The notes beneath the pieces were generated by a model, which saw only the letters and a list, made by a program, of their open reading frames with translations, had not been told where the DNA came from and did no database searches. A stretch of 64,000 bases of DNA from Saprospiraceae bacterium (GTDB lineage: Bacteria > Bacteroidota > Bacteroidia > Chitinophagales > Saprospiraceae), in the NCBI GenBank assembly GCA_044347755.1, contig JBIKUE010000009.1:1933-65932 (forward strand), given 5' to 3'. A program made the translations under genes and the position numbers. The stretch's first letter is position 1, and each line of letters begins with the position of its first letter. Positions 2,548 through 61,995 of the stretch are shown piece by piece.

Positions 2548-5500
2548 ATGAAGAAAATCCTTTCCCTCCTCACGCTACTGCTATTGGCCGTAGCCACGCT
2601 TTCTGCACAACGCAGCAAACCCGTTCCTCATAAAACCGACGAGCACCCTTTCACCCCGCAGATCAACTGGCCGGGCAAAGCGGTTCCGCCGGCAAACAAC
2701 CCGTTTTACGTAACGGCTCCGCGTTTCAAACCTGCCGGCCCGCTGACGCCCATTTCAGCCGTATCTGATGGCAATATTTCTGTAAAACGCGCCGAAAATG
2801 GCCTTCCTATGTTCTTTGAAGGCAAAACTGCGGCATCCGGCAGCATGGCCGAGAGCAAGCCCATGGACCAGCGCGCCCTGGAATACTGCGCCAGCCTGCA
2901 GCCACAGAGCATTGCCCAACCGGCACAGGAATTTACCGCAAAATCTGTTCAAACCGACGAGCAGGGCAACGCCCACGTGCGCCTGGAGCAAACCTTCAAC
3001 GGCCTGCCAGTTTGGGGTTCCGAACTCATTTGCCACACCCAGGGCGGCGCTTTCACGCGCATGAATGGCCGGTATTTCCCTACGCCTGAATTGGCTACCA
3101 TTACACCGGCCATGGATGCAGAAGCAGCCATATGGAAGGTAAAAACCGCTATCGGTTTGGAAAACCTCAAAACCGACTGGACGGAGCAAGACCTTAACAT
3201 GATTGATGGTGAGCCATTCAGCGCTATGCTCGTGGTTTTCCACGTGAACGAAAAACTCAACGGCGAACGCCTGGCCTGGCACGTAGCAGCCCGCCCCAAT
3301 GTATTCAGCCGCTCCGAATGGTTCATCGACGCCGCTACCGGCGAGGTGTTGAACTCCTTCGAACATACCTGCAATCTGCTGGGCCATTACCACGCCAAAG
3401 GGCACAACACCGCTTCGGTGGCAGCCCATGAAGGCCATGCGCCAAATGCGCCCAACATGGTAGACGGTCCGGTGAACATCAGCGGTGTAGACTTGCTGGA
3501 TGTAACCCGCAATCTACCTTTAGCCGGCTGGCAATTTGGCAATCAGGTAACACTTGAAGACGCCAGCAAAACCATGTTCAACGCTGGCGCTTCTAACATG
3601 CCCAGTGATCCGGTAGGCGTCATCGTAACCCTGGATGCCTCAAATACCTCTCCTGAAAATCAGAATTTCAATGTGGATTTGATTGTTTCCAACAATACTA
3701 CGTTTACCAATAAAAAGGCAGCGATCAGCTCACATTACAATGCCATCAAAAGCTTTGACTACTTCAAAACGAAGTTCAACCGCAATTCCATTGATGGGGT
3801 TGGAGGCAACGTAATCAGCATTGTAAATGTAACAGAAGCCGATGGCACTTCCATGGAAAATGCCTTCTGGAATGGCGCAGCCATGTTCTACGGAAATGGT
3901 GGCTCTGTGTTCAAACCTTTAGCCCGTGGCCTGGATGTAGGCGGCCACGAAATGACCCACGGGGTGATTGAAAAAACGGCTAACCTGATTTACCAAAACG
4001 AAAGTGGCGCCCTCAACGAATCCTTTGCCGATGTGTTCGGCCAGATGATTGATGGAGATCCAAACGACTGGAAAATCGGGGAAGATGTGATGCAAAGCGG
4101 TGGCGGCCTGCCAACTGCCCTGCGCGACATGCAAAACCCGAACAATGGCCAACCGGCCAATAGTTCTTTTTGGCAACCGGCTCACACCAATGATCAATAT
4201 GTTGGTCCGCAGGATAACGGAGGCGTACATATCAATTCCGGCATTATCAACCGCGCATACTTCCTGTTTGCTACTAACGCAGCTGTAGGTAATACAAAAG
4301 CTGAACAGGTGTTCTACAAAGCCCTGCGCGATTACCTGGTGAAATCCAGCAAATTCGTGGATTGCCGTTTAGCCGTAATCCAGGCTTCCAACGATTTGTA
4401 TGGCTCCACTGTGGCCGATGCAGCTGCAAATGCTTTCGCAGCGGTAGGTATCGGCAGCGGCGCCCCGAGCGGCAATTATCTGGGTCAACTGAGCCCAAAT
4501 CCAGGCACCGATTACATCCTTTGCACCAAAAACAACGGCGATCTGGAAATTGCCACCAGCACTGGCACCGTGATCGCATCGTTGTATACGGGGGGCATTA
4601 GTAGCCGTCCAAGCATAACCGACAATGGCGTAAGCATGGTGTTCATCAATGAGAACAATCAGTTGATGGCCATTGAATTCAACTGGCAGGCAAACCAATT
4701 CGTGGTGAGTACCGTGGATGATGGTCCATGGCGCAATGCCGCTATTTCAAAAGACGGTCGCTTCCTGGCCTTGCTGAAAGATTTTCTGGAGCCTCGCATT
4801 TATATCTATGATCTGGCGGATCCTTTTGGCGGATTTGAAACGTTTTTCCTGTACAATCCAACCTACACCCAGGGACAAATCACAGGCGATGTGGATTTTG
4901 CAGATGTAATGGAGTTTGATTATTCCAATACCTACCTGATGTACGATGCGTATAACACACTGGACAATATTGGCTACTGGGATATTGGTTTTATTCAATT
5001 CTGGGAAAATGACCAGTTTGCCGATGGTGGTGATGCATTTATCACCAAGCTCTTTTCCGGTTTGCCGGAAAAAGTGAGCATCAACAATCCAACGCTGTCT
5101 AAAAACTCGCCCTTTATTCTGGCATTCGATCTGATTGACGAAACCGGCACCGTGCGCAATGATATTTACGGCGCAAATTCAGAGACCGGCGATTATGACG
5201 TAATTGTATCCAATATTGGCGATCTGGGTTGGCCTAACTATAACCGTTTGGATACACGCCTGATTTACGACAATCCAACCGCTCAGGGATTTGATATCCG
5301 TTCTCAAGGCCTGAATCCAAATAAAATTCAGCCCCAGGGCAGCAACACTTCCCTGATTCCAGGACATTACTGGGGCGTTTGGTTTGCCAACGGAACCAGG
5401 AGCCTGCAAGTAGGTACAGAAGATCTGGAAGGTCAGGGATTTGCGATGAGTATTTCTCCAAACCCAACTGCAGACATAGCTCAACTGCGTATGAACGCTC

Positions 5501-5691
5501 CGGAAAGCACCAATGCCAGCATTAGCTTGCACGGCCTCCTGGGTGAAACCCTGCTTACCCGCAACGTGACCTTCTCAGAAGGCGAAAACGTGCTGGACAT
5601 TGACCTGCAATCCTACCCTTCCGGAAATTACATTGTGCGCATTGTATCTGAAACCGGCGCCGGTGCAGCTTTGAAAGTGGTGAAACTGTAG
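2548..5691 (+). CDS. secreted thermolysin-like (M4) metalloprotease with T9SS-type C-terminal sorting domain
   Basis: ORF 2437..5691 trimmed to ATG 2548 (MKKILSLLTLLLLAVATLSAQ signal peptide). M4 motifs HEMTHGV (HExxH) and GALNESFADVFG are present. There is a propeptide-like N-terminal region and a C-terminal ~80 aa segment (ISPNPTADIAQLRM...GNYIVRIVSE...KVVKL) typical of T9SS CTDs. Confidence 0.9.
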   Translation: MKKILSLLTLLLLAVATLSAQRSKPVPHKTDEHPFTPQINWPGKAVPPANNPFYVTAPRFKPAGPLTPISAVSDGNISVKRAENGLPMFFEGKTAASGSMAESKPMDQRALEYCASLQPQSIAQPAQEFTAKSVQTDEQGNAHVRLEQTFNGLPVWGSELICHTQGGAFTRMNGRYFPTPELATITPAMDAEAAIWKVKTAIGLENLKTDWTEQDLNMIDGEPFSAMLVVFHVNEKLNGERLAWHVAARPNVFSRSEWFIDAATGEVLNSFEHTCNLLGHYHAKGHNTASVAAHEGHAPNAPNMVDGPVNISGVDLLDVTRNLPLAGWQFGNQVTLEDASKTMFNAGASNMPSDPVGVIVTLDASNTSPENQNFNVDLIVSNNTTFTNKKAAISSHYNAIKSFDYFKTKFNRNSIDGVGGNVISIVNVTEADGTSMENAFWNGAAMFYGNGGSVFKPLARGLDVGGHEMTHGVIEKTANLIYQNESGALNESFADVFGQMIDGDPNDWKIGEDVMQSGGGLPTALRDMQNPNNGQPANSSFWQPAHTNDQYVGPQDNGGVHINSGIINRAYFLFATNAAVGNTKAEQVFYKALRDYLVKSSKFVDCRLAVIQASNDLYGSTVADAAANAFAAVGIGSGAPSGNYLGQLSPNPGTDYILCTKNNGDLEIATSTGTVIASLYTGGISSRPSITDNGVSMVFINENNQLMAIEFNWQANQFVVSTVDDGPWRNAAISKDGRFLALLKDFLEPRIYIYDLADPFGGFETFFLYNPTYTQGQITGDVDFADVMEFDYSNTYLMYDAYNTLDNIGYWDIGFIQFWENDQFADGGDAFITKLFSGLPEKVSINNPTLSKNSPFILAFDLIDETGTVRNDIYGANSETGDYDVIVSNIGDLGWPNYNRLDTRLIYDNPTAQGFDIRSQGLNPNKIQPQGSNTSLIPGHYWGVWFANGTRSLQVGTEDLEGQGFAMSISPNPTADIAQLRMNAPESTNASISLHGLLGETLLTRNVTFSEGENVLDIDLQSYPSGNYIVRIVSETGAGAALKVVKL

Positions 5692-5692
5692 T

Positions 5693-5819
5693 GGGAGATG
5701 AGTTAGGAGAGATGAGTTAGGAGAGATGAGTTAGGAGAGATGAGATATGATTTGGGCTCGGGTAATTGATCCATTTTACTAACCCGAGCCCAAATCATAT
5801 CTCATCTCTCCTAACTCAT
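5693..5819. repeat. intergenic word-repeat palindrome, likely a bidirectional terminator between convergent genes
   Basis: A 14-nt word gagatgagttagga is repeated 3x. A 38-nt inverted repeat follows (about 5726-5763 vs 5782-5819) around the core tttgggctcgggt...acccgagcccaaa. The right arm overlaps the stop codon of the minus-strand gene. Confidence 0.8.
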
Positions 5820-7312
5820 ATCCCATAACTCCCCACCGCTTCCATAAAGGCGCCGGATTTGATTTTAGTTTCGCGGAGTTCGTTTTCCGGCACGGATTCA
5901 TAGAGAAGGGTGGCGCCAGCGGAGAAAGAAAGCAGTCCATCTCGCACGTGGGCTGTTCGGATGGTGATGGCGGTATTCACATCCCCATTGAATAATAACC
6001 AGCCAATGCTGCCGCCGTAATACCCACGCGTATGTTGTTCAATCTCTTCAATGTACTGCATAGCGGCAATTTTGGGGGCGCCGGTGAGTGTGCCGGCATT
6101 CAGGCTGGCAATCAGCGCATCAAACCCTGAATAACGCGCCTGGAGCGTACCGCTCAATTGCGCCACAGTATGCGTTACGTGCGAATATTTCTCTACAATA
6201 CGGTAGTGTTCAATATCAATGCCCGGTTGGCAGATGCGCGCCAGGTCGTTGCGCCCAAGATCAATGAGCATATCCAGTTCCGAGTTCTCTTTGGGATCGT
6301 TGAGCAACTGCATCATCAGGCGATGATCTTCCATAGGATCCTGCGAGCGCCTGATAGAACCTGAAATGGGGCGTAAAGTAGCCCGTCCGTTCTCATAACG
6401 CAACATCAGCTCCGGACTGGCTCCTAGCAGGGTTTCATTCCCAAAATCAAAATAAAAAAGGTACGGAGAGGGGTTAATAGCCTTATAGCGGGCATACAAG
6501 GGCAGCAAATCGCCACTTACCGGAGCGGTGAGTTTCCGGCTGAGTACGATTTCCAAAAGTTCGCCTTCATGGCATAACTGAATGCCTCGTTGCACCTGCC
6601 TGCGAAATGTTTCATCATCCGGCGTAGCCACAAATTTCCCTATCTGCAGCGCCTCATCTGCGCCTCCCTGGGAAGGCACTGCGGGCGCTGCATGACACGG
6701 GTCTGTGTTTGATTTGGATAAAAACGCCTTGAGGTCCTGCTCAGCTGCCGGTTCATCGGCACGCGTGATGTACACCGTCAAATCAAGCGTTAAATGATTG
6801 AATAGCAGGATATTATCGAAAAGAAATAAATGAAAATCCGGTTCCGGACATGGCTTGGAATACGGCAAATCCTCAAACTGATACACAAACTGATATGCCA
6901 GCGCTCCGTACAGACCCATGAAGTTTTTGTCGGACATTTTGAAATGCGCCAACATGCTGCGCAATGGCTGTACAATGTTTTGTCGCTCCAGACGATCATC
7001 CTCCGCTCCGTGGAATGGAAGTTTTGGAATGTGCAACAACAGCCGGCCCTCCCGCTCACTTTCCACAAAAAGGGCAAATGTTTTTTTCAAAAAATCATAA
7101 AACACTTCTCCCCTGGCATCCAGCAAACGAATATCCAGGTGATCGTCTTTGCCGATCAATTCCAGTGTAGGCTCAAAACCTATAATCGAAAGCCTGCTGG
7201 ACTTGTCTACGGTAGAAGCTGACTCAAACAGGCAGGTAGGACCATTCCCTTTCAGTTGGCGGTACAACGAAAGGGCGTCGGCATATGGAAGTCGGGCGGT
7301 TGCAGTGTGCAT
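5816..7312 (-). CDS. chorismate-binding enzyme, anthranilate/aminodeoxychorismate synthase component I family
   Basis: ORF 5816..7393 trimmed to the ATG at comp. 7312 (MHTATARLPY...). Family motifs LFESAS, GTLTGAPK and RGYYGGSIGW...NTAITIRTA are present. No glutamine amidotransferase partner is adjacent, so TrpE vs PabB is unresolved. Confidence 0.85.
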   Translation of the reverse strand: MHTATARLPYADALSLYRQLKGNGPTCLFESASTVDKSSRLSIIGFEPTLELIGKDDHLDIRLLDARGEVFYDFLKKTFALFVESEREGRLLLHIPKLPFHGAEDDRLERQNIVQPLRSMLAHFKMSDKNFMGLYGALAYQFVYQFEDLPYSKPCPEPDFHLFLFDNILLFNHLTLDLTVYITRADEPAAEQDLKAFLSKSNTDPCHAAPAVPSQGGADEALQIGKFVATPDDETFRRQVQRGIQLCHEGELLEIVLSRKLTAPVSGDLLPLYARYKAINPSPYLFYFDFGNETLLGASPELMLRYENGRATLRPISGSIRRSQDPMEDHRLMMQLLNDPKENSELDMLIDLGRNDLARICQPGIDIEHYRIVEKYSHVTHTVAQLSGTLQARYSGFDALIASLNAGTLTGAPKIAAMQYIEEIEQHTRGYYGGSIGWLLFNGDVNTAITIRTAHVRDGLLSFSAGATLLYESVPENELRETKIKSGAFMEAVGSYGI

Positions 7313-16771: not shown

Positions 16772-16962
16772 CAGAAACGTGAGGCATCCCGAATTTTCAG
16801 GTTGCTCCTGTTTGTTTTCTTAAATAGCGTAGCAGACCTCGCAAGAGGTCCCTCATTCACCTAATCCACGGTGCTACAAAGGTTGGACCTCTTGCGAGGT
16901 CTGCTACGCTATTTTAAACGGAACATAAGCCTCTGAAAAATTAGGGATACCTAACGTTTCTG
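16772..16962. repeat. ~190-nt nested palindromic intergenic element
   Basis: Outer arms are cagaaacgtgaggcatcccgaattttcag and ctctgaaaaattagggatacctaacgtttctg. Inner arms are a perfect 30-nt pair: aaatagcgtagcagacctcgcaagaggtcc (16822-16851) and ggacctcttgcgaggtctgctacgctattt (16885-16914). Confidence 0.8.
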
Positions 16963-20821: not shown

Positions 20822-20855
20822 GCGGGGTTTCAAAGCCCACGCTCTGAAACCCCGC
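20822..20855 (-). terminator. stem-loop followed by a T-run after the toxin-immunity operon (copy A)
   Basis: On the minus strand the sequence reads gcggggtttca-loop-tgaaaccccgc followed by ttttcgg. It lies 12 nt after the stop at 20867. Confidence 0.6.
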
Positions 20856-20866
20856 ATGACAATCCC

Positions 20867-21592
20867 TTAGTTATTATAAGCCGCTGCAGCCTCCTGCATT
20901 TTGGCTTTTTTCTCTTCAGGCGTTAATTCTCCAAGCTCCTCTGTTGGCGTAAACCTTATACCAACTAAACCCTCCTTTTCGATGGCATCTTTTAGCCGCT
21001 CTGAAACATAAAAGCCGGATGGCATAAAAATGAGTCGAAACATGTCGGTGCCTTCAGCTGCCTTGGAAATCTTGAGGACTCTGACATACAGGTTTTCTTT
21101 TTTGAAGAAAAGAGCATTTTTTAAGGATCTGAATTCCTCGTAGCTACTGAATTTCAAGCCCATTTTAATTACCTGGACAGCAAAATCAGTAGTATGCATC
21201 ACCTCAGTGTGTTCCCAGTCTACAAACTCGGCTGCACTGTTTTTGGTAAAATAGAGCAGAAAGTATGCCCGCTCTTCTTCTGCTTGTCTCACTGTCACCG
21301 GAAAGGCTTGATGATCAGCCAATTTGAATTTTGAAAGTAGGAAATAGAACCGACTACTTATGAGCAGGAACCCACCACCTCCTGGAGTAAAAGAGAACAA
21401 ATCTATCCATCTGGCTTCCTTTTCTAACAAAAGCACCGGAAACTTTTTGTTCGGATCAAGCTTCCCCTCCAGAGGAATGGATTGAAACGGGTGACCTTCT
21501 CCGGTTTCAGGGTTATGTACAAATTTTCGAACCTGCCCATCGATTCCAATTTCTTTCAAGTCCAGGGAAAACGTGATTTTATAAAAGTTCAT
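20867..21592 (-). CDS. orphan immunity-like protein, Imm11/DUF1629-like; paralogue of 25193..25921
   Basis: 241 aa, clearly homologous to the ORF that directly follows the AHH toxin in copy B. The C-terminal pattern DMFRLIFMPSGFYVSERLKDAIEKEGLVGIRF resembles Imm11. It is preceded by a remnant of the AHH toxin 3' end. Confidence 0.6.
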   Translation of the reverse strand: MNFYKITFSLDLKEIGIDGQVRKFVHNPETGEGHPFQSIPLEGKLDPNKKFPVLLLEKEARWIDLFSFTPGGGGFLLISSRFYFLLSKFKLADHQAFPVTVRQAEEERAYFLLYFTKNSAAEFVDWEHTEVMHTTDFAVQVIKMGLKFSSYEEFRSLKNALFFKKENLYVRVLKISKAAEGTDMFRLIFMPSGFYVSERLKDAIEKEGLVGIRFTPTEELGELTPEEKKAKMQEAAAAYNN

Positions 21593-21596
21593 GGCA

Positions 21597-21686
21597 TTAG
21601 AAATTCAAATCGTTGATTTTTGTGGTCGGGTTTTGATCAATCAAATTGCCCAGCTGGTTTTGAAAATCACGCAATCGCTGACTTGC
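21597..21686 (-). pseudogene. remnant of the 3' end of an AHH-type toxin gene (last 30 codons plus stop)
   Basis: The reverse complement translates to ASQRLRDFQNQLGNLIDQNPTTKINDLNF*. This is identical in protein to residues 578-607 of the copy-B toxin, with a few synonymous differences. Homology ends abruptly at 21686. Confidence 0.75.
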
Positions 21687-21692
21687 TATTCT

Positions 21693-21739
21693 GCCGCGCT
21701 TGGGTCTTCCCGATGAAGTCGGGAAGACCCAAGCGCGGC
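21693..21739 (-). terminator. perfect 21-bp stem / 5-nt loop hairpin at the cassette junction
   Basis: gccgcgcttgggtcttcccga (21693-21713) pairs perfectly with tcgggaagacccaagcgcggc (21719-21739). It lies 20 nt downstream of the 212-aa ORF stop and 6 nt from the toxin remnant. There is no T-run. Confidence 0.55.
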
Positions 21740-21759
21740 GAACGAAACGAAACGCCCGA

Positions 21760-22398
21760 TTATCTTATATCGTCCAGTATGCTCAGGTTCAAACCTGCGG
21801 CAATAAATTCATCACTCACGATCATCTCTTCCGGTGTTTCCGGATGATCAAATAATACCCGGAAATGCCCCTCTCCCTCAGCAAAAATGTACACCCACTT
21901 GCCATTCTCAAAATGGAATCCGATAATATCAAGGGTCTTTTTGTTGATATGAATGACATCTGGCAACTCGGCATTGGGCGGAAAAAAGCAGGCAATTTCT
22001 TCCCTTCGTGAGGCGGTTTCTATTGTTTCTACCCGTACCTCACCCATCCCGACAATTCGTTGAACCGCTCCGTGATCTCCTTGAATGCAGAAATGATATC
22101 CCAGTTTTTTTAAGGTGTCCCTGCTGCTTACTTCCACATTCAGGAGGTTAGCTTCTATACCATACAAATTGCCGGCAACATTTTGCGTGCCTTTGGAATG
22201 AATTTCCAGCCTCATCGGTTTTTCCGGACGGGGGCGTTTGAATATCAGTAATAACGGGCAAAAGTGGCTGTATAATTCAAGCGGTTGTGACAGACCCAAA
22301 AAGCCATCTGGAACAAAAACCGTAAAGCCCTTTGTTCCGAGAGCATCCCGGAACAAAGGGTTAATGTTACACTCAAAGTCGATGTGAAGTTCTGACAT
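21760..22398 (-). CDS. putative cognate immunity protein for toxin A (no recognised family)
   Basis: 212-aa ORF. Its ATG overlaps the toxin stop (TGATG, 1-nt overlap), which suggests translational coupling. There is no signal peptide. The immunity role is inferred from position only. Confidence 0.55.
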   Translation of the reverse strand: MSELHIDFECNINPLFRDALGTKGFTVFVPDGFLGLSQPLELYSHFCPLLLIFKRPRPEKPMRLEIHSKGTQNVAGNLYGIEANLLNVEVSSRDTLKKLGYHFCIQGDHGAVQRIVGMGEVRVETIETASRREEIACFFPPNAELPDVIHINKKTLDIIGFHFENGKWVYIFAEGEGHFRVLFDHPETPEEMIVSDEFIAAGLNLSILDDIR

Positions 22399-24239
22399 CA
22401 GAATCGCATTTTAAATTCGAAAGAACCTTTTTTAATGGCAATGGTGGGTTCGCCAGATGAGGTAGATTCAAGGTAGAACCTCATAGTGTAGTTGTTTCCT
22501 CCAAGATTGAATTCTGCAGTTATCTCATTTCCGTTGTTCCCAGAACTAATGTTATCAGGATCAATCTCAAAAGCTTCTACCAGGTCATCCCAAACATCAA
22601 GCGGCCCAAGCCCGTTAACCTTTGCCCCATTTCCAGTCCACTCAATCTTGGCGTAAAGATCATCAATTTTATTTCTTAAAACCTGATAGACCCTGTATGC
22701 AACATCATCGCCAAGCGTATATACTTTCTTCATTACATCATAAAACTTCATCAGGCTCGTTGCCTTTTTACCCAAACTGACTCCAAATGAAGCCACTTTC
22801 GCTATCGGAACAAAGGTGCCTGCTTCATCCAGTGCAATTTCTGCAGCAGTCCATATTGCGCCAAGGTAATCTCCGCTTTTTAACTGGTCAATTGCTGCTG
22901 GGCCAAGCGTGATAATTGTACCACCCGGTATAATGTCTATTAAGGCATCCTTTAACGCTAGTTCAAGCTGCTCAATGATAATATCCCAAACAGGGTTACT
23001 GATTGAATTGCTCTGAGCGTCTTGAAAAAACTGTTGAACTTCAACTGATCCAGAAGAAAGCATTTGGATATAACTTACCACAACTGCTGCCGCTAAGTTG
23101 GCATCATGCTGGTTAGCATTGTGGCTCTGCAGGAACGATAAACACTCTCCAATTCGACCTGAATTACTTACCAACCAATTTAACTGCGCAGCATTAAATT
23201 GGCAGTCATTTATCAGTTGTACCAGCAATTCTGCAGCGTCTTTGGATGCTGCATCCCCTCCATTAAATGTTATGAAGGACCCAATTTCGTCAAATAAAGC
23301 CTGATCGTTTAGCAGCAGTGTTTTTTCGGCGGCAGTAAGATCAAACCAGTCATCTACGATCACCTCTTTGGTACATTGAGACAGGCCGCTGTTAAACGCA
23401 TCGTACCATTCGGGTCCGTCATAAGAGGAAAAACCACAAGTGTTTTTGATCTGCTCCATCAAATCGATCGGATGCTGCTCCAGGAAGAATTTATCCTTGA
23501 GCAAATGGGTCAAAAGGATTGCGAACGAGCCGTTGCATTTACCATTAATATAGGCTTTTAGCTTGTCGGCGGTTGCAATGTCCTTAGGACTGGCATCCCA
23601 ATATTTGATGATCTCCTCCTGCTGTGGATGGCCATATTGTGTGAACAGGCACATGGATTCTGCCCCGTTCAAACCAGCCTCATTGACAAGCATACAAAAA
23701 TCCAGATCTGTCTGACTATAGCCGGGTGGAATCTCTCCAATCGAGAGAATGTATTCATTGATGGCAGCACAGGTTGCCATCTGGCCGGAAAACTGCTGGT
23801 CAAAAATGCCTCCTCCGCCAGGTTGTTGGTAACCTTCCGGCGTAGTCCATCCCAATTGCCCTCCCGGGAAAAAATAGGATCCGGAATATGATTCGGAGCT
23901 GCCATTGATGGCATCCCAGATATTGCCGGCAACGGTACCGAAGTCTTTCCAAAATTCATTCCACCAACCCCAATCAATATTAATATTGTTGCTTCCAAAT
24001 TGAGGACACCTTACCTTCGGCTTGCCATCTCTGTCGGATGACGTTGAATCAGTTTGCGCAAATCCGGAGGAGATATCCCAAAACGGAATTTTACCGTCTC
24101 CTTTCAGAGCAATGTAGCCGTTAACCACCTTCACAAACTTTTCAATGGTATCTTCCTGGCTTACCAGCATCATAGTACCATTGAACTGACCGGTAGCATC
24201 CAAAGAGGAAAGAACGTGGACAGAGAGTCGGCTGCCCAT
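22398..24239 (-). CDS. polymorphic toxin A: shared 343-aa N-terminal region plus unique 270-aa C-terminus of unknown activity
   Basis: 613 aa. Residues 1-343 equal those of copy B except for 2 substitutions. Sequences diverge completely after ...AELLVQLI (nt ~23210). The C-terminal part has a PT-TG-like linker (DIIPGGTIITLGPAAIDQLKSGDYLGAIW) and then ~125 aa that I cannot assign. Confidence 0.7.
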   Translation of the reverse strand: MGSRLSVHVLSSLDATGQFNGTMMLVSQEDTIEKFVKVVNGYIALKGDGKIPFWDISSGFAQTDSTSSDRDGKPKVRCPQFGSNNINIDWGWWNEFWKDFGTVAGNIWDAINGSSESYSGSYFFPGGQLGWTTPEGYQQPGGGGIFDQQFSGQMATCAAINEYILSIGEIPPGYSQTDLDFCMLVNEAGLNGAESMCLFTQYGHPQQEEIIKYWDASPKDIATADKLKAYINGKCNGSFAILLTHLLKDKFFLEQHPIDLMEQIKNTCGFSSYDGPEWYDAFNSGLSQCTKEVIVDDWFDLTAAEKTLLLNDQALFDEIGSFITFNGGDAASKDAAELLVQLINDCQFNAAQLNWLVSNSGRIGECLSFLQSHNANQHDANLAAAVVVSYIQMLSSGSVEVQQFFQDAQSNSISNPVWDIIIEQLELALKDALIDIIPGGTIITLGPAAIDQLKSGDYLGAIWTAAEIALDEAGTFVPIAKVASFGVSLGKKATSLMKFYDVMKKVYTLGDDVAYRVYQVLRNKIDDLYAKIEWTGNGAKVNGLGPLDVWDDLVEAFEIDPDNISSGNNGNEITAEFNLGGNNYTMRFYLESTSSGEPTIAIKKGSFEFKMRF

Positions 24240-24613
24240 AAAACCAGTTTACTTTGAATTTGTCCGGCCGGGTCTTTATAAAAAGCCAGGCTACTCCCAA
24301 ATCGGGTGCCCGGAAGTGAGGCAGGAGTATCAACAGGCGTGATAAGTACCGGAAAGCCAGAAGGTGTTACAATATAGGATTCGTTCCAGAGGGGCGTTAC
24401 ACATAGTGGCAGCTTGTCTTCTGACCGGTCGAGAGCCCCTCCTCCATTTGAAAACCGGCCTTTTACTTCTTCCAATGAAATGGAGCGGTTGACCAGTTCA
24501 TTGGCTGGCTCACTCAACGGAATTTCTTGTAGTTCCTTTCTACATCCGCCTGCAAAAACTAAAGTAAGTAATACAATAACAGGCCACGCTGTGGCAAATT
24601 TGAATTGAATCAT
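24170..24613 (-). CDS. small lipoprotein ORF overlapping the toxin A start by 70 nt (possibly the original N-terminus of the toxin)
   Basis: 147 aa. MIQFKFATAWPVIVLLTLVFAGGC is a signal peptide plus lipobox. It ends 70 nt inside the toxin ORF in another frame. The frame junction is at a T4 run (ctggttttatggg). Confidence 0.6.
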   Translation of the reverse strand: MIQFKFATAWPVIVLLTLVFAGGCRKELQEIPLSEPANELVNRSISLEEVKGRFSNGGGALDRSEDKLPLCVTPLWNESYIVTPSGFPVLITPVDTPASLPGTRFGSSLAFYKDPAGQIQSKLVLWAADSLSTFFPLWMLPVSSMVL

Positions 24614-25021: not shown

Positions 25022-25192
25022 ATATCAAATCACGGTTTGGCCTTAAAAGTGGCCAAGCTTTTTACGGCAGAGTAAGAGGCTAAAAGTGATAATCCATTTG
25101 TGTTATGTGAAGGAAACTACACTTAATTACCCCTAAACCTTAAAGTTTTTACCTTTCAGAGTCTACTCTCTGAAACCCCGCATGACAATCCC

Positions 25193-25921
25193 TTAGTTAT
25201 TATAAGCCGCTGCAGCTTCCTGCATTTTGGCTTTTTTCTCTTCCGGTGTTAATTCTCCAAGCTCCTCTGTTGGCGTAAACCTTATACCAACTAAACCTTC
25301 CTTTTGGATGGCATCTTTTAGCCGCTCTGAAACATAAAAGCCGGATGGCATAAAAACAAACTTGAACATGTCGGTACCTTCAGCTGCCTTGGCGATCTTG
25401 AGGACTCTAACATACAGGTTTTCTTTATTGTGTAGCAATTCCATTTTTCTGGCCAAAAACTCCTCATAGCTACTGAATTTCAAGCCCATTTTAATTACCT
25501 GGGCAGCAAAATCAGTAGTATGCATCACCTCAGTGTGTTCCCAATCTACAAACTCGGCTGCACAGTTTTTGGTAAAATAGAGCAGAAAGTATGCCCGCTC
25601 TTCCTCTCCTTGTCTCACTGTCACCGGGAAAGCTTGATAATCATCCAAATTGAATTGGCTCAACAGCATATAAAAACGACTGCTTATTAGAAGCAGACGC
25701 CCTGATCCGGGAACTTGTTCAAGCAGATCCGTCCATTTTGCAGCCTTTTCTAACAAAAGCACCGGAAACTTTTTGTTCGGATCAAGCTTACCCTCCAGAG
25801 GAATGGATTGAAAGGGGTGACCTTCTCTGGTTTCAGGGCTTTGTACAAATTTCTGAACTTGGTCATAAATTCCAATGACCTTCGGATCCAAAGAAAGTGC
25901 AAGTCTGAAAAACTTCATCAT
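25193..25921 (-). CDS. putative immunity protein for the AHH toxin, Imm11/DUF1629-like
   Basis: 242 aa. The start lies 1 nt after the toxin B stop. The C-terminal pattern DMFKFVFMPSGFYVSERLKDAIQKEGLVGIRF resembles Imm11, which is the usual neighbour of AHH/HNH toxins. Confidence 0.65.
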   Translation of the reverse strand: MMKFFRLALSLDPKVIGIYDQVQKFVQSPETREGHPFQSIPLEGKLDPNKKFPVLLLEKAAKWTDLLEQVPGSGRLLLISSRFYMLLSQFNLDDYQAFPVTVRQGEEERAYFLLYFTKNCAAEFVDWEHTEVMHTTDFAAQVIKMGLKFSSYEEFLARKMELLHNKENLYVRVLKIAKAAEGTDMFKFVFMPSGFYVSERLKDAIQKEGLVGIRFTPTEELGELTPEEKKAKMQEAAAAYNN

Positions 25922-25922
25922 A

Positions 25923-27746
25923 TTAGAAATTCAAATCGTTGATTTTTGTGGTGGGGTTTTGATCAATCAAATTTCCCAGCTGGTTTTGAAAATCACGCAA
26001 TCGCTGACTTGCAACATCTGGAGGAATATTATTAAGCCCTCCATATTGAGTTTCTAATTGACTCAAAATCTCATTCAAATTTATTCGGACTTTTTCATTA
26101 TATTGCGGATGATTTCCATGAACACCATCCTGTTGATCGAAACGGAACCGTTTTAACTCTCTTCCATTTTTTGGGTGGTTCATGTGAAAAGGGGTGTTAT
26201 TAGCCTTCGCCGCAAGTTGTACCAACTCGTGATCTTGTCTTGACCAAGGAATCAAATGATGCGCATCATTCGCTGCATCGGTAATTTCCATTACCTCTCT
26301 CAAACCTGTTCTTTCACCAAAGGTAATAAGTCCTCCATCATTTGTCAACTTCAATAAATGCTGAACGCCTGTAGATGCCTTTTTTACTGCGACATGTGCA
26401 TATTTACCGCCTGTAGATATCCATCCAGCGATTGGAAGGGTTGCTGCAAAGCTCAGGGATGCATTCAGCGGATCACCCTCGATTATGAATAGTACACCAT
26501 TGGTCAGATCACATGGCTCGCCAACTACAGGCAGAAGCCCACAAATGTCAAGAGCAATATGTAATTCATACATTACCTCTTTTACTGCCTGGAGAAAAAT
26601 GGTGTCCATATCCCAAGATGGATGTAAAATCTTCAACCATGCCATCTTCATAATCAACTGGACAAATACACCCGGAGGAAAATCCTCCTCCTTGAACGAT
26701 GGGTATTTACCTTGTGCAATTAGCTGTACCAGCAACTCCGCAGCGTCTTTGGATGCTGCATCCCCTCCATTAGAAGTTATGAAGGACCCAATTTTGTCAA
26801 ATAAAGCCTGATCATTCAGCAGTAGTGTTTTTTCGGCGGCAGTAAGATCAAACCAGTCATCTACGATCACCTCTTTGGTACACTGAGACAGACCACTGTT
26901 AAAAGCATCGTACCATTCGGGTCCGTCATAAGAGGAAAAGCCACAAGTGTTTTTGATCTGCTCCATCAAATCGATCGGATGCTGCTCCAGGAAGAATTTA
27001 TCCTTGAGCAAATGGGTCAAAAGGATTGCGAACGAGCCGTTGCATTTACCATTAATATAGGCTTTTAGCTTGTCGGCGGTTGCAATGTCCTTAGGACTGG
27101 CATCCCAATATTTGATGATCTCCTCCTGCTGTGGATGGCCATATTGTGTGAACAGGCACATGGATTCTGCCCCGTTCAAACCAGCCTCATTGACAAGCAT
27201 ACAAAAATCCAGATCTGTCTGACTATAGCCGGGTGGAATCTCTCCAATCGAGAGAATGTATTCATTGATGGCAGCACAGGTTGCCATCTGGCCGGAAAAC
27301 TGCTGGTCAAAAATGCCTCCTCCGCCAGGTTGTTGGTAACCTTCCGGCGTAGTCCATCCCAATTGCCCTCCCGGGAAAAAATAGGATCCGGAATATGATT
27401 CGGAGCTGCCATTGATGGCATCCCAGATATTGCCGGCAACGGTACCGAAGTCTTTCCAAAATTCATTCCACCAACCCCAATCAATATTAATATTGTTGCT
27501 TCCAAATTGAGGACACCTTACCTTCGGCTTGCCATCTCTGTCGGATGACGTTGAATCAGTTTGCGCAAATCCGGAGGAGATATCCCAAAACGGAATTTTA
27601 CCGTCTCCTTTCAGAGCAATGTAGCCGTTAACCACCTTCACAAACTTTTCAATGGTATCTTCCTGGCTTACCAGCATCATAGTACCATTGAACTGACCGG
27701 TAGCATCCAAAGAGGAAAGAACGTGGACAGAGAGTCGGCTGCCCAT
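25923..27746 (-). CDS. polymorphic toxin B: shared 343-aa N-terminal region plus C-terminal AHH-type HNH/EndoVII nuclease domain
   Basis: 607 aa. The C-terminus reads DAHHLIPWSRQDHELVQLAAKANNTPFHMNHPKNGRELKRF...DGVHGNHPQYNEKV, which fits the AHH family pattern (AHHxIP ... N..NG..L ... HxGxHxxYN). It is preceded by a PT-TG-like linker LLPVVGEPCDLTNGVLFIIEGDPLNA. Confidence 0.75.
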   Translation of the reverse strand: MGSRLSVHVLSSLDATGQFNGTMMLVSQEDTIEKFVKVVNGYIALKGDGKIPFWDISSGFAQTDSTSSDRDGKPKVRCPQFGSNNINIDWGWWNEFWKDFGTVAGNIWDAINGSSESYSGSYFFPGGQLGWTTPEGYQQPGGGGIFDQQFSGQMATCAAINEYILSIGEIPPGYSQTDLDFCMLVNEAGLNGAESMCLFTQYGHPQQEEIIKYWDASPKDIATADKLKAYINGKCNGSFAILLTHLLKDKFFLEQHPIDLMEQIKNTCGFSSYDGPEWYDAFNSGLSQCTKEVIVDDWFDLTAAEKTLLLNDQALFDKIGSFITSNGGDAASKDAAELLVQLIAQGKYPSFKEEDFPPGVFVQLIMKMAWLKILHPSWDMDTIFLQAVKEVMYELHIALDICGLLPVVGEPCDLTNGVLFIIEGDPLNASLSFAATLPIAGWISTGGKYAHVAVKKASTGVQHLLKLTNDGGLITFGERTGLREVMEITDAANDAHHLIPWSRQDHELVQLAAKANNTPFHMNHPKNGRELKRFRFDQQDGVHGNHPQYNEKVRINLNEILSQLETQYGGLNNIPPDVASQRLRDFQNQLGNLIDQNPTTKINDLNF

Positions 27747-28120
27747 AAAACCAGTTTACTTTGAATTTGTCCGGCCGGGTCTTTATAAAAAGCCAGGCTA
27801 CTCCCAAATCGGGTGCCCGGAAGTGAGGCAGGAGTATCAACAGGCGTGATAAGTACCGGAAAGCCAGAAGGTGTTACAATATAGGATTCGTTCCAGAGGG
27901 GCGTTACACATAGTGGCAGCTTGTCTTCTGACCGGTCGAGAGCCCCTCCTCCATTTGAAAACCGGCCTTTTACTTCTTCCAATGAAATGGAGCGGTTGAC
28001 CAGTTCATTGGCTGGCTCACTCAACGGAATTTCCTGTAGTTCCTTTCTACATCCGCCTGCAAAAACTAAAGTGAGTAATGCAATAACAGGCCACGCTGTG
28101 GCAATTTTGAATTGAATCAT
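27677..28120 (-). CDS. small lipoprotein ORF overlapping the toxin B start by 70 nt (paralogue of 24170..24613)
   Basis: 147 aa. It differs from the copy-A ORF at 2 residues (F6I, V14A) and has the same LVFAGGC lipobox and the same overlap geometry. Confidence 0.6.
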   Translation of the reverse strand: MIQFKIATAWPVIALLTLVFAGGCRKELQEIPLSEPANELVNRSISLEEVKGRFSNGGGALDRSEDKLPLCVTPLWNESYIVTPSGFPVLITPVDTPASLPGTRFGSSLAFYKDPAGQIQSKLVLWAADSLSTFFPLWMLPVSSMVL

Positions 28121-30712: not shown

Positions 30713-30832
30713 AGGCACAAAGGTGTGTGGACACTAAGGCGCAAAGACGCGAAGGCGCTAAGTGTTAGGTGCGCTTTGCGCACCATATTTTAAACTTCGT
30801 GCCTTCGCGTCTTTGTGCCTTAGTGTAACCTC
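30713..30832. repeat. intergenic nested inverted repeat (same word family as 9735-9865)
   Basis: cactaaggcgcaaagacgcgaaggc (30732-30756) pairs with gccttcgcgtctttgtgccttagtg (30801-30825). The inner palindrome is ggtgcgctttgcgcacc. Confidence 0.8.
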
Positions 30833-35330: not shown

Positions 35331-35407
35331 GTTGGGCTGGTGCTCATTTTTTACTTAGAGTCTCACTCCGAGTGAGACTCTAAGTAAAAAATGAGCACCA
35401 GCCCAAC
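35331..35407 (+). terminator. perfect 37-bp stem / 3-nt loop hairpin immediately after the GH65 gene
   Basis: gttgggctggtgctcattttttacttagagtctcact ccg agtgagactctaagtaaaaaatgagcaccagcccaac. It starts 7 nt after the stop codon. Confidence 0.7.
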
Positions 35408-47040: not shown

Positions 47041-49176
47041 ATGCGCCATACCTACCTATCCATTGCGGCTTTCATTATCTTTCTTTCTAATGCCCCACAT
47101 GCCCAAAACATCTGGTTTGTAAACGCTTCAAGTCAGGCTGTTCAACCAAGCGGCGTTTCCTGGCAGGATGCTTATCCCCGTTTGCAGGATGCCCTGCAAG
47201 TGGCTCAATATGGCGACCAAATCTGGGTAGCAGCTGGCGTATACAAACCTACCCAAACAGCACAGAGAGACCTCTCTTTTGTACTGAAAAACGGCGTTGC
47301 CATGCTGGGTGGTTTTGCGGGCACAGAATCCGCTGCTGAACAGCGCAACCCGATCCTGAACCTCACCAGACTGAGTGGCAACATCGGCGATACGGCTATT
47401 GATACCGACAATTCATTTCATGTACTCACGGGTATAGGATTGGATGAACAAACCGTATTAGACGGGTTTGTCATTTCAGACGGAAACTCATCTGGCTCCG
47501 TCAACACAGAATCTGATCAATATGGCGCAGGTATGTTTTTGCTTGGCGCTGAGGGATTGCCTGATTCCCGGCCATTGATTGCAAACTGTGTTTTTGAACA
47601 CAATGAAGCCGGGCAAGGAGGTGGGGGCATTTTTGTCGGACATATTAATCCCTCCGATCCATTTGGCCCGCAGCATTTGGTTAATCCGCGACTGAAGAAC
47701 TGTACATTTTTTCAAAACCGGGGAAATATTTACGGTGGCGGATTAATGAAAATAGGCCCTACGGCCCCCAATGATACCTTTGTACTTGAAAATTGCCGGT
47801 TTACGGATAATTATGCTTTTGCTGCACATGGTGGAGGCGTGCAGATTGAAAAAACAGGCAATTCTACCATTGCTTTTAAGGACTGTATTTTTAAATACAA
47901 CGAAACGCAGGGTGGAAACGGTGGAGGGTTAAATATAACGGCTAATTCAGATGGGGCATTTACTATTTTACTAATCATGCAAGGCTGTACTTTTATTAAA
48001 AATAATGCGGCGACTGGTGGCGGATTTAATATCGATGGCATTATCTATCTCCCTATGAATTATACTATTAATTTATCCATAGAGAATTGCTTGTTTGAGG
48101 AAAATGATAGTAGGAATGAAGCGGGTGGAGCTTATTTAGTTTATATCGGCCGCAATGGGGTTGTAAACGCAACTATCCGTAACAGCCAATTCTTACGCAA
48201 TGTAGCCAACAGTTATTTTGCTACCGCTTTTCTATGCAATGATACCAGTTCAGCTAATGTTTTGGTGGAAAATTGTTCTTTTATCGGCAACAGACAAAGA
48301 AATAATCCTAATAGTTACTTTGTGGCGTATAGCGCGGGTGGCAACAATGTACACAGCCGCCTCAATAACTGTTTATTTGCCAATAATCCTGGCGGGGCCA
48401 TTTTCGCCGGAGGTCATGAAGAAACCAAAGTGCTGACCGAAGTAACCAATTGCACCTTTTACAACAATGGCGCTAATCCGTTCGGGAAACGCTGGTATTC
48501 CTCTTTTAACCAAGCCGGTGCACAGTTTTACAACAAGATGAATTTTTACAACTGCGCCATTTGGGAGCCACAGTCCAAGCATCGTCTGATCTACAATAAC
48601 AACCAAAATAATATCAACGGATTCTGGTTTCGTTTCGAGTATTGTAGTATGAGTCCATTGGTTCCCGGGATAGCCATAATCCCCAACTATAATTTGGTTT
48701 TCGGGGATAGCGTTTACCACAATGTCTACCCTGGATTTGTGGATACCCTGGGTGGAGATTTTCGGCTTGGCCAATGTTCACCGGTTCTCAATAGAGGTAG
48801 CAATGAGGCTGTTGACAGCGCCGGCATTACAACAGACTTTGACGGGCAGGCACGCATCCGCTTTGGTCGGGTAGATTTGGGCGCGTATGAGCAGCAGGAT
48901 TCCTGTGTAATTTCTTCCACGGATGAACTGGAAGCTGTTAACTCCGGTAAACTTTGGCCTAACCCTGCATCACCAGGCAGTCGGTTGCAATGGGAATTAC
49001 CAGAGATATCACAAAAAGCAGGACGGTGGCACTTGCTGGATGCGTACGGACGGCTTTTGATGGAGGGTTCAGATCTGAGCACAGGCATTACTGCCCCAGC
49101 TATACCAGGAATATATTGGGTAATCCTGCACATTGAACAACAAACGATTCAGCGTAAATTAGTGGTGCAACGATGA
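47041..49176 (+). CDS. secreted right-handed beta-helix protein with T9SS-type C-terminal sorting domain
   Basis: 711 aa with a signal peptide. GGG(I/L/F)-type turns are reiterated (GQGGGGIFV, GGGLMK, HGGGVQI, GNGGGLNI, TGGGFNI). The DLGAYE motif is present. The C-terminus is LWPNPASPGSRLQWEL...GIYWVILHIEQQTIQRKLVVQR. Confidence 0.8.
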   Translation: MRHTYLSIAAFIIFLSNAPHAQNIWFVNASSQAVQPSGVSWQDAYPRLQDALQVAQYGDQIWVAAGVYKPTQTAQRDLSFVLKNGVAMLGGFAGTESAAEQRNPILNLTRLSGNIGDTAIDTDNSFHVLTGIGLDEQTVLDGFVISDGNSSGSVNTESDQYGAGMFLLGAEGLPDSRPLIANCVFEHNEAGQGGGGIFVGHINPSDPFGPQHLVNPRLKNCTFFQNRGNIYGGGLMKIGPTAPNDTFVLENCRFTDNYAFAAHGGGVQIEKTGNSTIAFKDCIFKYNETQGGNGGGLNITANSDGAFTILLIMQGCTFIKNNAATGGGFNIDGIIYLPMNYTINLSIENCLFEENDSRNEAGGAYLVYIGRNGVVNATIRNSQFLRNVANSYFATAFLCNDTSSANVLVENCSFIGNRQRNNPNSYFVAYSAGGNNVHSRLNNCLFANNPGGAIFAGGHEETKVLTEVTNCTFYNNGANPFGKRWYSSFNQAGAQFYNKMNFYNCAIWEPQSKHRLIYNNNQNNINGFWFRFEYCSMSPLVPGIAIIPNYNLVFGDSVYHNVYPGFVDTLGGDFRLGQCSPVLNRGSNEAVDSAGITTDFDGQARIRFGRVDLGAYEQQDSCVISSTDELEAVNSGKLWPNPASPGSRLQWELPEISQKAGRWHLLDAYGRLLMEGSDLSTGITAPAIPGIYWVILHIEQQTIQRKLVVQR

Positions 49177-49283
49177 TGAACTATGAACTATGAACGATGG
49201 GCTTGCGCTCGGTGTAATAGGTGATTTTCACTTCATCGAGCGCAAGTTCATCGTCTATCGTTCATCGTCCAACAGTCCATCGT
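49177..49283. repeat. intergenic word-repeat palindrome with conserved core (cttgcgctcgg...cgagcgcaag)
   Basis: tgaactatgaactatgaacgatgg gcttgcgctcggtgtaataggtgattttcacttcatcgagcgcaagttc atcgtctatcgttcatcgtcc. It sits between convergent genes and touches both stop codons. Confidence 0.8.
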
Positions 49284-50803: not shown

Positions 50804-50946
50804 GAAAGCTCGCTGAATGGATGAATGGGCCCGCGAATGTAGACTTAACCTGCAACTGCACCAAAACGAACAGCGTTTTTCCCTACTTTTGTGCTTTCAT
50901 TGCAAAAAGCGGTGGATTTCTAAAGGTCATTAGAGTTATTTAGGAG

Positions 50947-51050
50947 TTCTTTTGGGTCATTTGGGGGTCATTAAGAGTCATTTTAAATCATTCCAAATGA
51001 CTCAAATGACCTAAAATGACTCTTAATGACCCCCAAATGACCCAAAAGAA
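50947..51050. repeat. perfect 38-nt inverted repeat built from aaatgac words
   Basis: ttcttttgggtcatttgggggtcattaagagtcatttt (50947-50984) pairs with aaaatgactcttaatgacccccaaatgacccaaaagaa (51013-51050). catcgttcatcgtt words follow, up to the next ATG. Confidence 0.85.
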
Positions 51051-51091
51051 CCCCACACCGTCCCATCGTTCATCGTTCATCGTTTAATTAC

Positions 51092-58150: not shown

Positions 58151-58260
58151 TGGGAGTCATTAAAGGTCATTTGAGTCATTTAGGGTCATTTGTAAATGGC
58201 ATTAATGACTCAAATGACCTTTAAAATGACTCAAATGACCCTTAACGACCAATAAATGAC
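58151..58260. repeat. intergenic inverted repeat built from aaatgac words
   Basis: gtcattaaaggtcatttgagtcatttagggtcattt ... aatgactcaaatgacctttaaaatgactcaaatgaccc. Confidence 0.75.
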
Positions 58261-61425: not shown

Positions 61426-61537
61426 CGTTGGACAATGGACTGTTAGACAATGGACATTGGACTTGGGCTCTGGGTAATATGTAATTACAGCTACAACGAG
61501 CGCAAGTCCAATGTCTAATATCCAACAGTCCAACGTC
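61424..61537. repeat. intergenic word-repeat palindrome with conserved core (ggacaatggac words)
   Basis: gacgttggacaatggactgttagacaatggacattggacttgggctctgggtaatatgtaattacagctacaacgagcgcaagtccaatgtctaatatccaacagtccaacgtc. It starts inside the rlmN stop codon. Confidence 0.8.
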
Positions 61538-61634
61538 CATATCATACGTGGTTTTGAACGAGGATGCTTTTCAATAAATTTGAAATCAAGTACTTGCATC
61601 ACGAAAATCATCAAAATCACGCTAATCACAGTAT

Positions 61635-61949
61635 ATGATCAAGCGTATTGTAAAAATGACCTTCCGCGATGATGCGGCAGAGACCTTTGTATCGGAAGTT
61701 TTTGAGCAAAGCAAGGAGAAAATCCGCGCTTTTAACGGCTGCCGGCACATGGAATTGTTGCGGCAGAAAAACAAGCCCAACATAATGTTCACCCTTAGTA
61801 TCTGGGATCATGAAGAGGCGCTGAATGCATATCGCGCTTCAGAGTTGTTTGCCGATACCTGGGCTAAAACCAAGGCATTGTTTGCTGCCAAGGCCGAAGC
61901 CTGGACCACTGAGGTTATTGACGAACCAAATCACCGCGAAGAACGCTAA
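61635..61949 (+). CDS. antibiotic-biosynthesis-monooxygenase (ABM) domain protein
   Basis: 104 aa. MIKRIVKMTF...FNGCRHMELLRQ...FTLSIWDHEEALNAYRASELF fits the ABM ferredoxin-like fold pattern. Confidence 0.7.
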   Translation: MIKRIVKMTFRDDAAETFVSEVFEQSKEKIRAFNGCRHMELLRQKNKPNIMFTLSIWDHEEALNAYRASELFADTWAKTKALFAAKAEAWTTEVIDEPNHREER

Positions 61950-61995
61950 GTACCCAAAATTCAACACTTTGCGCACTTAGCGTTCTTCGCGGTGA
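61931..61995 (+). terminator. perfect 21-bp inverted repeat whose left arm is the last codons of the ABM gene
   Basis: tcaccgcgaagaacgctaagt (61931-61951, including the stop) pairs with acttagcgttcttcgcggtga (61975-61995). Confidence 0.6.

Follow-up and report, generated by a model that had tools for sequence, protein, structure and literature searches.

How does the tail of a nuclease gene, without start codon or catalytic domain, come to lie between a perfect hairpin and an intact immunity gene? The question is raised by a chromosomal locus in a 64-kb stretch of DNA from a Saprospiraceae bacterium (contig JBIKUE010000009.1), hereafter called the window, whose positions serve as coordinates throughout. 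Two toxin modules, A and B, stand there in tandem between a gene for a 2-oxoacid dehydrogenase E2 and one for a TonB-dependent receptor, and the minus strand encodes every gene of the locus. Behind module A lie a short 3' remnant of an AHH nuclease gene, the stub, and an Imm11-type immunity gene, Imm11-a. The answer that we consider probable is that the AHH tip of module A (AHH-a) has been replaced by a cassette that consists of a pre-toxin or pre-C-terminal (pre-CT) region, a different C-terminal domain (CT-A), its putative immunity gene (imm212) and a palindrome, by means of a homologous crossover on the left and an illegitimate join at the edge of the palindrome on the right. The interpretation of the stub and Imm11-a as a displacement scar with an orphan immunity gene is supported by the analyses below.

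Two tandem modules with a common body and unrelated tips

Both modules begin with a lipoprotein signal peptide, followed by a shared N-terminal region without a known domain (N-domain). Module B continues with an AHH nuclease, whose translation shows the motif DAHHLIPW, and with the immunity gene Imm11-b, which starts 1 nucleotide (nt) past the toxin stop. Module A runs from the N-domain into CT-A and imm212 and ends with a hairpin of 21 base pairs (bp), behind which the AHH stub and Imm11-a follow (Table 1). Residues 1-343 of the two toxins are 99% identical, with no similarity beyond. At 98-100% identity, the DNA of the modules can be aligned from the upstream region as far as codon 343 of the open reading frame (ORF) of 613 amino acids (aa), at position 23218, and it is unrelated thereafter; the homology between the modules picks up again only at 21686. 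An earlier sequence-only reading of the window had proposed to define the breakpoints by aligning the two copies; they lie at 23218 and 21686.

The stub (21686-21597) differs from the end of the AHH gene of module B (26012-25923) at 2 of its 90 nt, both times synonymously, and is translated as ASQRLRDFQNQLGNLIDQNPTTKINDLNF followed by the stop. Since its frame meets a stop codon around 24 codons upstream and holds no start codon, the stub stands outside any longer ORF, and in no assembly does it belong to a longer intact gene, an outcome for which the sequence-only reading had allowed. All elements described in that reading, i.e., the 212-aa ORF, the 20-nt spacer, the hairpin with its 21-bp stem and 5-nt loop, the 6 nt behind it, the stub and the Imm11-like paralogue, lie exactly where they had been placed. 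The arrangement is fixed, being present in at least 23 metagenome contigs of the same population, and is found at 99.8-100% identity in contigs from many JGI/ENA samples (L001, L002, L030-L037), one of which (L030) shows no difference from the window in 12.6 kb. As contigs from many samples carry the same arrangement, the scar is not an assembly artefact.

The two N-terminal bodies are thus the same and the tips unrelated, CT-A is found on different N-termini, and an immunity gene lies directly behind each tip. Judged by these sequence features, the locus is predicted to encode polymorphic, lipoprotein-anchored toxins with a constant N-terminal region and an exchangeable tip, each accompanied by its own immunity gene.

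Extent of the cassette in related genomes

The genomes closest to the locus are metagenome-assembled genomes (MAGs) of Saprospiraceae, with a DNA identity of 83-88%. L003 is a locus of a related organism, whose toxin (745 aa) is intact. Its alignment with module A is one uninterrupted block at 87% identity, from 23603 to 21687. The block extends from the pre-toxin region over CT-A, imm212 and the spacer to the hairpin, and the stub follows directly on its last base. Past this block, L003 continues with unrelated sequence, without AHH or Imm11. The incoming unit of C-terminus, immunity gene and hairpin that had been postulated from the window is delimited independently by this block. The identity between the toxin proteins of L003 and the window amounts to 42-68% over residues 1-350 and to 78-98% from residue 351 to the end; because of this jump at residue 351, the cassette has a different history from the gene body. 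In the pre-toxin region, the DNA of L003 is 87% identical to both A and B, and judging from these alignments the 385 nt from 23603 to 23218 are likely to be the left homology arm for cassette exchange. On the right-hand side, the motif AGAWTA is common to the window junction and L003. The flank AGAATAGCAA resembles the hairpin flank of another related locus (L008) and the AHH gene reads TTGCAAGTC, which may point to a 4-nt microhomology (GCAA) at the join.

A scar analogous to that of the window occurs in L038 and L040. L038 and the related contigs L039-L044 carry imm212 alleles that are 80% identical to that of the window, and L038 includes orphan copies. The order in L038 starts with a second type of toxin gene (toxin2) and its immunity gene, a hairpin and 65 nt with a match behind the hairpin of L003. 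These are followed by the 78-nt 3' end of CT-A (25 codons and the stop), an orphan imm212 and a second hairpin, and then by a second imm212 and a third hairpin, after which the 65 nt and the stub recur, with a third, truncated imm212 behind them. The CT-A cassette would be the displacer in the window and the displaced party in L038. L008 holds an orphan 240-aa AHH C-terminal domain (AHH-CT), without N-domain and without pre-CT region, together with Imm11; the same hairpin (~60 nt past the stop) and a CT-A-type module come next. In the window, L003 and L013, imm212 and the hairpin are followed by three different sequences, i.e., synteny breaks at the hairpin. The search for the hairpin beside other toxin/immunity pairs of relatives, which the sequence-only reading had recommended, has thus been fruitful in L003, L013, L008 and L038. 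The gene order of L008 also brought up the option that module B is a duplicated N-domain fused to an older orphan AHH-CT; this is not supported, as the L008 orphan lacks the pre-toxin homology that such a fusion requires.

Further toxin genes were encountered along the way. Toxin2 is a second family of lipoprotein toxins (649-741 aa), located at 8695-11266 in L003 and at 3434-5723 and 10904-11248 in L038. Its C-terminal domain is common to the 741-aa protein of L003 and to the protein P0005, a putative immunity gene of 111-124 aa lies behind it, and it shares arrays with CT-A cassettes. In L004 (3150-3460), an AHH toxin homologue (P0007, 719 aa) ends soon after the AHH motif and its tail (…INDIVPP…) is found in another frame downstream; the P0007 gene is either frameshifted or partly deleted, and a 226-aa gene comes next.

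Table 1. Features of the toxin locus, from upstream to downstream on the minus strand, and long palindromes elsewhere in the window.
Feature	Positions	Strand	Remarks
Module B toxin gene, 5' part (lipoprotein signal peptide and start of N-domain)	27677..28120	-	ORF start MIQFK...LVFAGGC
Module B toxin: N-domain (aa 1-343) and AHH (HNH/EndoVII) nuclease C-terminus	25923..27746	-	Pfam AHH PF14412, 32.2 bits (cut-off 22.3)
Imm11-b, cognate immunity gene of the AHH toxin	25193..25921	-	Pfam Imm11 PF07791, 37.8 bits (cut-off 22.1)
Module A toxin gene, 5' part (lipoprotein signal and start of N-domain)	24170..24613	-	Split by the same 10-nt deletion as module B; intact 741-aa ORF in L031/L032
Conserved pre-toxin region, aa ~351-471 of the intact protein	23218..23603	-	Common to modules A, B and L003
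CT-A, 270-aa C-terminal domain, presumed toxin domain of module A	22398..23217	-	Unrelated to module B
imm212, 212-aa putative immunity gene of CT-A	21760..22398	-	ATG overlaps toxin stop (TGATG)
Perfect GC-rich palindrome, 21-bp stem, 5-nt loop	21693..21739 (arms 21693-21713 / 21719-21739)	.	3' end of the CT-A/imm212 unit
Junction hexamer AGAATA between hairpin and stub	21687..21692	-	L003 blastn block ends at 21687
AHH 3' stub, 29 codons and stop, without start codon or catalytic domain	21597..21686	-	Match to 25923-26012
Imm11-a, intact orphan immunity gene, divergent Imm11-b allele	20867..21592	-	241 aa; Pfam Imm11 34.3 bits (cut-off 22.1)
15-bp hairpin, 11 nt past the Imm11-a stop	20822..20855	-	3' end of A/B homology in its loop
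Long palindromes in the window	5714-5831, 16822-16914, 30731-30826, 35331-35407, 49174-49274		
Long palindromes in the window, continued	50943-51054, 58156-58249, 61429-61539, 61931-61995		

The tip CT-A and its neighbor imm212

An exhaustive profile-free search yielded 66 clusters of CT-A homologues, nearly all of which match at the C-terminal end of proteins of 450-820 aa. The two homologues that were read directly (P0004 and P0009) differ in their N-termini. A query with the full-length toxin gave 9 clusters in 5.8 billion proteins, which makes for a very small family. By this distribution, CT-A behaves as a portable C-terminal tip, presumably of a toxin. An imm212-type gene lies behind the CT-A homologue in every locus inspected, namely in L003, in L005 (212 aa, ~45% identity) and in L006 (240 aa). 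Sequence searches with CT-A, imm212 and the N-domain against Pfam, NCBIfam and PDB remained without a match.

The palindrome at the end of the cassette

The hairpin starts 20 nt past the stop of the 212-aa ORF and its arms are 100% complementary. Its 47 nt alone fold at -45.8 kcal/mol, and the surrounding piece of 106 nt has a z of -8.2 (200 shuffles). The 21-mer arm does not recur elsewhere in the 64 kb with three mismatches or fewer (0.00 expected by chance), and a covariance model likewise finds one copy in the window. Across 185,579 species genomes, a scan for the hairpin core gave real matches in only three Saprospiraceae/Chitinophagales MAGs, on four contigs, two of which are toxin loci (L008 and L013); around 18 matches with a variable loop in unrelated phyla were attributed to chance and discarded after blastn. 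In a metagenome contig collection, both the scan with the hairpin pattern and the scan with the imm212 profile came back empty. Copies are located after imm212 in L003 and L013, furthermore in L008, L016 and L029, and three times in L038. On the distant toxin loci L004-L006 and L045-L048, the covariance model finds no copy save a weak 20-bit match in L047. The hairpin does not appear to be the common genome-wide repeat for which the sequence-only reading had allowed. It is dispersed over unrelated contexts in four MAGs, with only one or two strict copies per genome.

The conserved unit comprises ~47-66 nt and is 88-98% conserved across genomes in non-homologous contexts. Only a few changes occur: one compensatory pair, G·U pairs in some places and single bulges. 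The loop reads WGRAG in some copies and CTTCW in others, and a single genome can contain both orientations. On the 5' side the flank is rich in T; the 3' flank reads AGAATAGCAAG in sense and GAACGAAACG in antisense; an assignment of orientation from the loop sequence and the flanks was attempted, the signals conflict and no conclusion was drawn. A search of positions 20-29 kb against Rfam gave only a meaningless sub-threshold microRNA match on the hairpin. Altogether, the hairpin is probably a lineage-specific, low-copy palindrome, of the 3'-end kind or resembling a repetitive extragenic palindrome (REP), that travels with cassettes and marks their ends.

Strong hairpins directly behind stop codons are usual in this genome, with 12 of the 38 gene 3' flanks below the 5th percentile of coding controls and stems of up to 37 bp. 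Long and often perfect palindromes (arms of 21-50 nt) are present throughout the window (Table 1), mostly just past stops, and some derive from short internal repeats. Compared to the window, L032 has only three substitutions in 11.3 kb, all of them in the right arm of the hairpin (TCGGTAAGACCAATGCGCGGC; L032 5306-5378), where they break the perfect stem. They could be genuine and confined to this site, or errors made in sequencing through a strong hairpin. A repeat of ~75-110 nt begins with one hairpin arm and the loop and continues as ...CAGGTCTTGACCCAGCGC.CACG.GTGA.C.GCC.GGCATT.GT. It is present in the window at 2278-2352, upstream of an M4 peptidase/type IX secretion system (T9SS) gene, and in L016 at 4642-4748 and 5645-5775.

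A probable replacement of the tip

In the replacement that we favor, the ancestral downstream module would have carried an AHH nuclease tip with Imm11-a at its end. The incoming cassette would have consisted of the conserved pre-toxin region, CT-A, imm212 and the terminal GC-rich palindrome. It would have entered on the left through homologous recombination within the pre-toxin region (23603-23218) and on the right through an illegitimate join within the old AHH gene, 0-6 nt behind the palindrome. The AHH tip would thereby have been cut to its last 29 codons, with Imm11-a left intact and orphaned. The palindrome would be the natural 3' end of the cassette, most likely serving as an RNA 3' end (by a transcription block or as an exonuclease stop) and, at the DNA level, most likely as a shared homology patch or fragile site at which cassettes are joined. 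Since neither a toxin domain nor upstream homology was kept, the stub cannot be re-activated. Imm11-a may still be expressed; a by-eye search of the stub for the Bacteroidota-type promoter motif TAnnTTTG gave only TTTG cores, and a sigma-70 scan stayed at chance level.

A number of observations weigh against this reading or complicate it. A haplotype that predates the displacement, in which module A still carries AHH-a, was not found among the relatives, and we therefore infer the direction and mechanism of the event. The divergence between the modules is 15.8% for the DNA of Imm11-a and Imm11-b (81% identity at the protein level), 2.2% for the stub (binomial P = 3e-5 against the rate of the Imm11 genes) and 0% for the N-domains over 1.09 kb. 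With so divergent Imm11 genes next to identical N-domains, the history must have included gene conversion or independent acquisitions and cannot have been one simple step; because the divergences of Imm11, stub and N-domain are so unequal, gene conversion and allele mosaicism are involved. Both toxin genes of the window are frameshifted by a 10-nt deletion, and, going by its ORFs, the locus as sampled may make no secreted toxin. The toxicity of CT-A and the immunity conferred by imm212 are predicted from gene context, and an AlphaFold2 model of CT-A, built on a 4-sequence alignment, is unusable at a pLDDT (predicted local distance difference test) of 49.6. The palindrome itself is not exclusive to toxin loci, as it lies 11 nt past an AbiEii-like gene in L016 and ~10-15 nt past a gene for a protein with a T9SS C-terminal domain (CTD) in L029. 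Six copies give no covariation signal, with 17 of the 21 stem pairs invariant, and a U-tract is present neither on either strand of the window hairpin nor in the other copies. A terminator scan does not call the hairpin. Of the two roles that had been offered for it, membership of the mobile unit agrees with its place within the L003 block, and that of a terminator is unproven.

The same remnant could also have been produced by deletion. Three tandem modules, B, A and C (the last with AHH-a and Imm11-a), would then have lost ~2 kb from the 3' edge of the module A hairpin into AHH-a; the upstream region, the N-domain and most of the nuclease of C would have disappeared, with the stub and Imm11-a left behind. 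Tandem duplication does operate here, as upstream regions and N-domains are duplicated and homogenised, and long perfect palindromes are fragile sites. Moreover, the stub of L038 is joined 65 nt past the hairpin, in what is plain intergenic DNA in L003, which resembles a deletion between modules. We nevertheless judge a deletion to be possible but rather unlikely: no relative with three modules was found, the mosaic identity with L003 shows that the CT-A cassette has been exchanged laterally at some point, and the cassette shared with L003 ends 0-6 nt from the junction, as is expected when the end of the cassette is the join, whereas a random deletion endpoint would fall there by coincidence. 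A chimeric assembly or a chance similarity is hardly credible. Two long and near-identical modules can be mis-joined, and the three single-nucleotide polymorphisms (SNPs) of L032 all fall in the hairpin arm, but 88 of the 90 positions are identical and lead into a homologous 726-nt gene, and the junction has been assembled independently in many samples with different pipelines and has its analogue in L038 and L040.

The palindrome might be more than a passive end. As an active recombination site (an integron attC, a target of the REP/RAYT type, in which RAYT stands for REP-associated tyrosine transposase, or an Xer-type site), it would be used by a recombinase encoded elsewhere, and the stub would be a product of cutting. 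That its sequence is conserved in non-homologous contexts and in both loop orientations, that a hairpin stands at every cassette border of L038 and that in three genomes synteny is lost at its 3' edge would all agree with such a role, as would the rAID-1 arrays of Bacteroidales, in which orphan immunity genes, repetitive intergenic sequences and an XerD-family recombinase are joined (bioRxiv 10.1101/471110). However, no recombinase, transposase or integrase is present among the ~40 genes of the 64-kb window or among the called genes of L003, L008 and L038 (the Pfam list of L003 contains none, that of L038 is empty and L008 was seen as an ORF list only). The stem is perfect, unlike that of attC, the distance to the junction varies from 6 nt in the window to 65 nt in L038, the element has one copy in 64 kb, and the toxin loci of more distant family members lack it but for the weak match in L047. 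We hold an active site of this kind to be very doubtful. Doubtful, too, is the view that the palindrome is the site of an undescribed Saprospiraceae cassette system that shuffles tip/immunity pairs and other conflict genes (AbiE) between chromosomal loci, with the short and hardly altered stubs (90 nt in the window, 78 nt in L038) kept for signals that express the orphan genes. Such a system would rely on a recombinase encoded elsewhere or on hairpin-directed strand exchange, with cutting or pairing at the palindrome, and each cassette would bring its own portable 'end'. Replacement of the tip by a laterally acquired cassette remains the reading that we prefer.

Frameshifts, probable gene conversion and mosaic immunity alleles

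The 10-nt deletion (CAACGTGTGC) lies at ~24205 and ~27712 on the minus strand and splits each toxin gene into an ORF of 147 aa and one of 613 or 607 aa. In module B, the 5' part is cut off in this way from the rest of the gene, to which it is fused in L031/L032, giving a 735-aa protein. These two contigs, else 99.8-99.9% identical to the window, have the 10 nt in both copies and thus encode intact lipoprotein toxins of 741 aa and 735 aa. The two toxin copies either share the deletion or both lack it, which points to concerted evolution; the strains with the deletion are possibly toxin-null and immunity-proficient.

Over 1,093 nt of the N-domain (24526-23434; 26941-28033 in B), not a single difference separates modules A and B. 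Thirteen differences are packed into the last 205 nt before the tips part (23433-23229), and the upstream region differs as well. The identity over 1,093 nt with differences clustered on either side speaks for a recent tract of gene conversion between the two copies, and near 23433 the pattern would fit either a crossover or a conversion tract that ends there.

Between the Imm11-a and Imm11-b genes, 45 codons differ non-synonymously and 36 synonymously, a pattern that would fit recombination together with diversifying selection for the specificity of immunity. Their alleles are mosaic: the N-terminus of Imm11-a is like the Imm11 of L008 (L008 4879-5604), and so is the middle of Imm11-b. Behind Imm11-a, the homology between A and B ends in the loop of a 15-bp hairpin (Table 1). 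The counterpart in module B (25154-25181) has kept only the 5' arm, which forms an 8-bp hairpin with new sequence, and the limit within the loop of 20822-20855 is a second rearrangement junction at a hairpin.

Significance

The event is of a known kind, in a new toxin family. What the locus adds is a tip exchange resolved to the base pair, with the 385-nt pre-toxin region as left arm, the palindrome as right end and an old tip brought down to 29 codons. It originates from a freshwater-type lineage of Bacteroidota and concerns a toxin family, both of which were previously undescribed. CT-A, with its ~66 clusters, and imm212 are put forward as a candidate new toxin/immunity pair. That one conserved palindrome keeps turning up at the borders of cassettes, in several genomes, provides a handle on the right-hand end of the exchange, a step that is not explained by the published models compared here. 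Finally, haplotypes that are possibly toxin-null and immunity-proficient, owing to the 10-nt deletion in both copies, bear on the ecology of cheating in bacterial warfare.

Comparison with known systems

The replacement of the 3' tip and immunity gene of polymorphic toxins, with strings of old immunity genes left behind, is an established model (PMC3482391; PMC9086364). The locus resembles the systems described by Zhang, Aravind et al. 2012 (PMC3482391) in its constant N-terminal body with alternative tips, its toxin-then-immunity order, a cassette that brings its own immunity gene and an old immunity gene left downstream, as well as in the pairing of Tox-AHH with Imm11, which is known in Bacteroidetes. 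It differs from them in that no described family matches its lipoprotein body, CT-A or imm212 and in that a conserved palindrome marks the ends of its cassettes.

Stem-loops at gene ends are familiar from REP elements, bacterial interspersed mosaic elements (BIMEs) and intrinsic terminators. The hairpin shares with these its GC-rich stem-loop at 11-20 nt past stops and the occurrence of the same sequence after unrelated genes in related genomes. Unlike an intrinsic terminator, it has no U-tract, and unlike typical REP elements, it combines a very low copy number with a perfect 21-bp stem. The likeness to rAID-1 (Ross et al. 2019, bioRxiv 10.1101/471110) and to integrons lies in arrays of orphan immunity genes with a repeated intergenic element, best seen in L038 with its three hairpins and three imm212 genes. 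In contrast to those systems, no tyrosine recombinase of the IntI or XerD family is adjacent, the palindrome is perfect and conserved in sequence rather than degenerate and attC-like, the window has one copy of the element, and full-length toxins are part of the locus.

Also comparable are the well-described orphan cdiA-CT/cdiI modules of contact-dependent inhibition (CDI) systems and the orphan Rhs-CT modules (Poole et al. 2011; Koskiniemi et al. 2014; review PMC9086364). In such classical orphans, the toxin domain is complete and part of the pre-toxin motif (VENN, PxxxxDPxGL) is still present, though a start codon is lacking, and recombination can re-activate them (PMC9086364). The remnant of the window, in contrast, is limited to the last 29 codons, has no homology arm and is dead. 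L008 does hold a full orphan of the classical type (a 240-aa AHH-CT), albeit without the pre-CT region. The likeness to CDI and Rhs orphans that the sequence-only reading had drawn thus applies to the intact orphan Imm11-a downstream and does not extend to the toxin domain or the pre-toxin region, neither of which was kept. As in CDI and Rhs loci, a toxin remnant and an intact immunity gene stand behind an active pair, and by analogy the orphan immunity gene is presumably kept as a protection against neighbors that still carry the old toxin.

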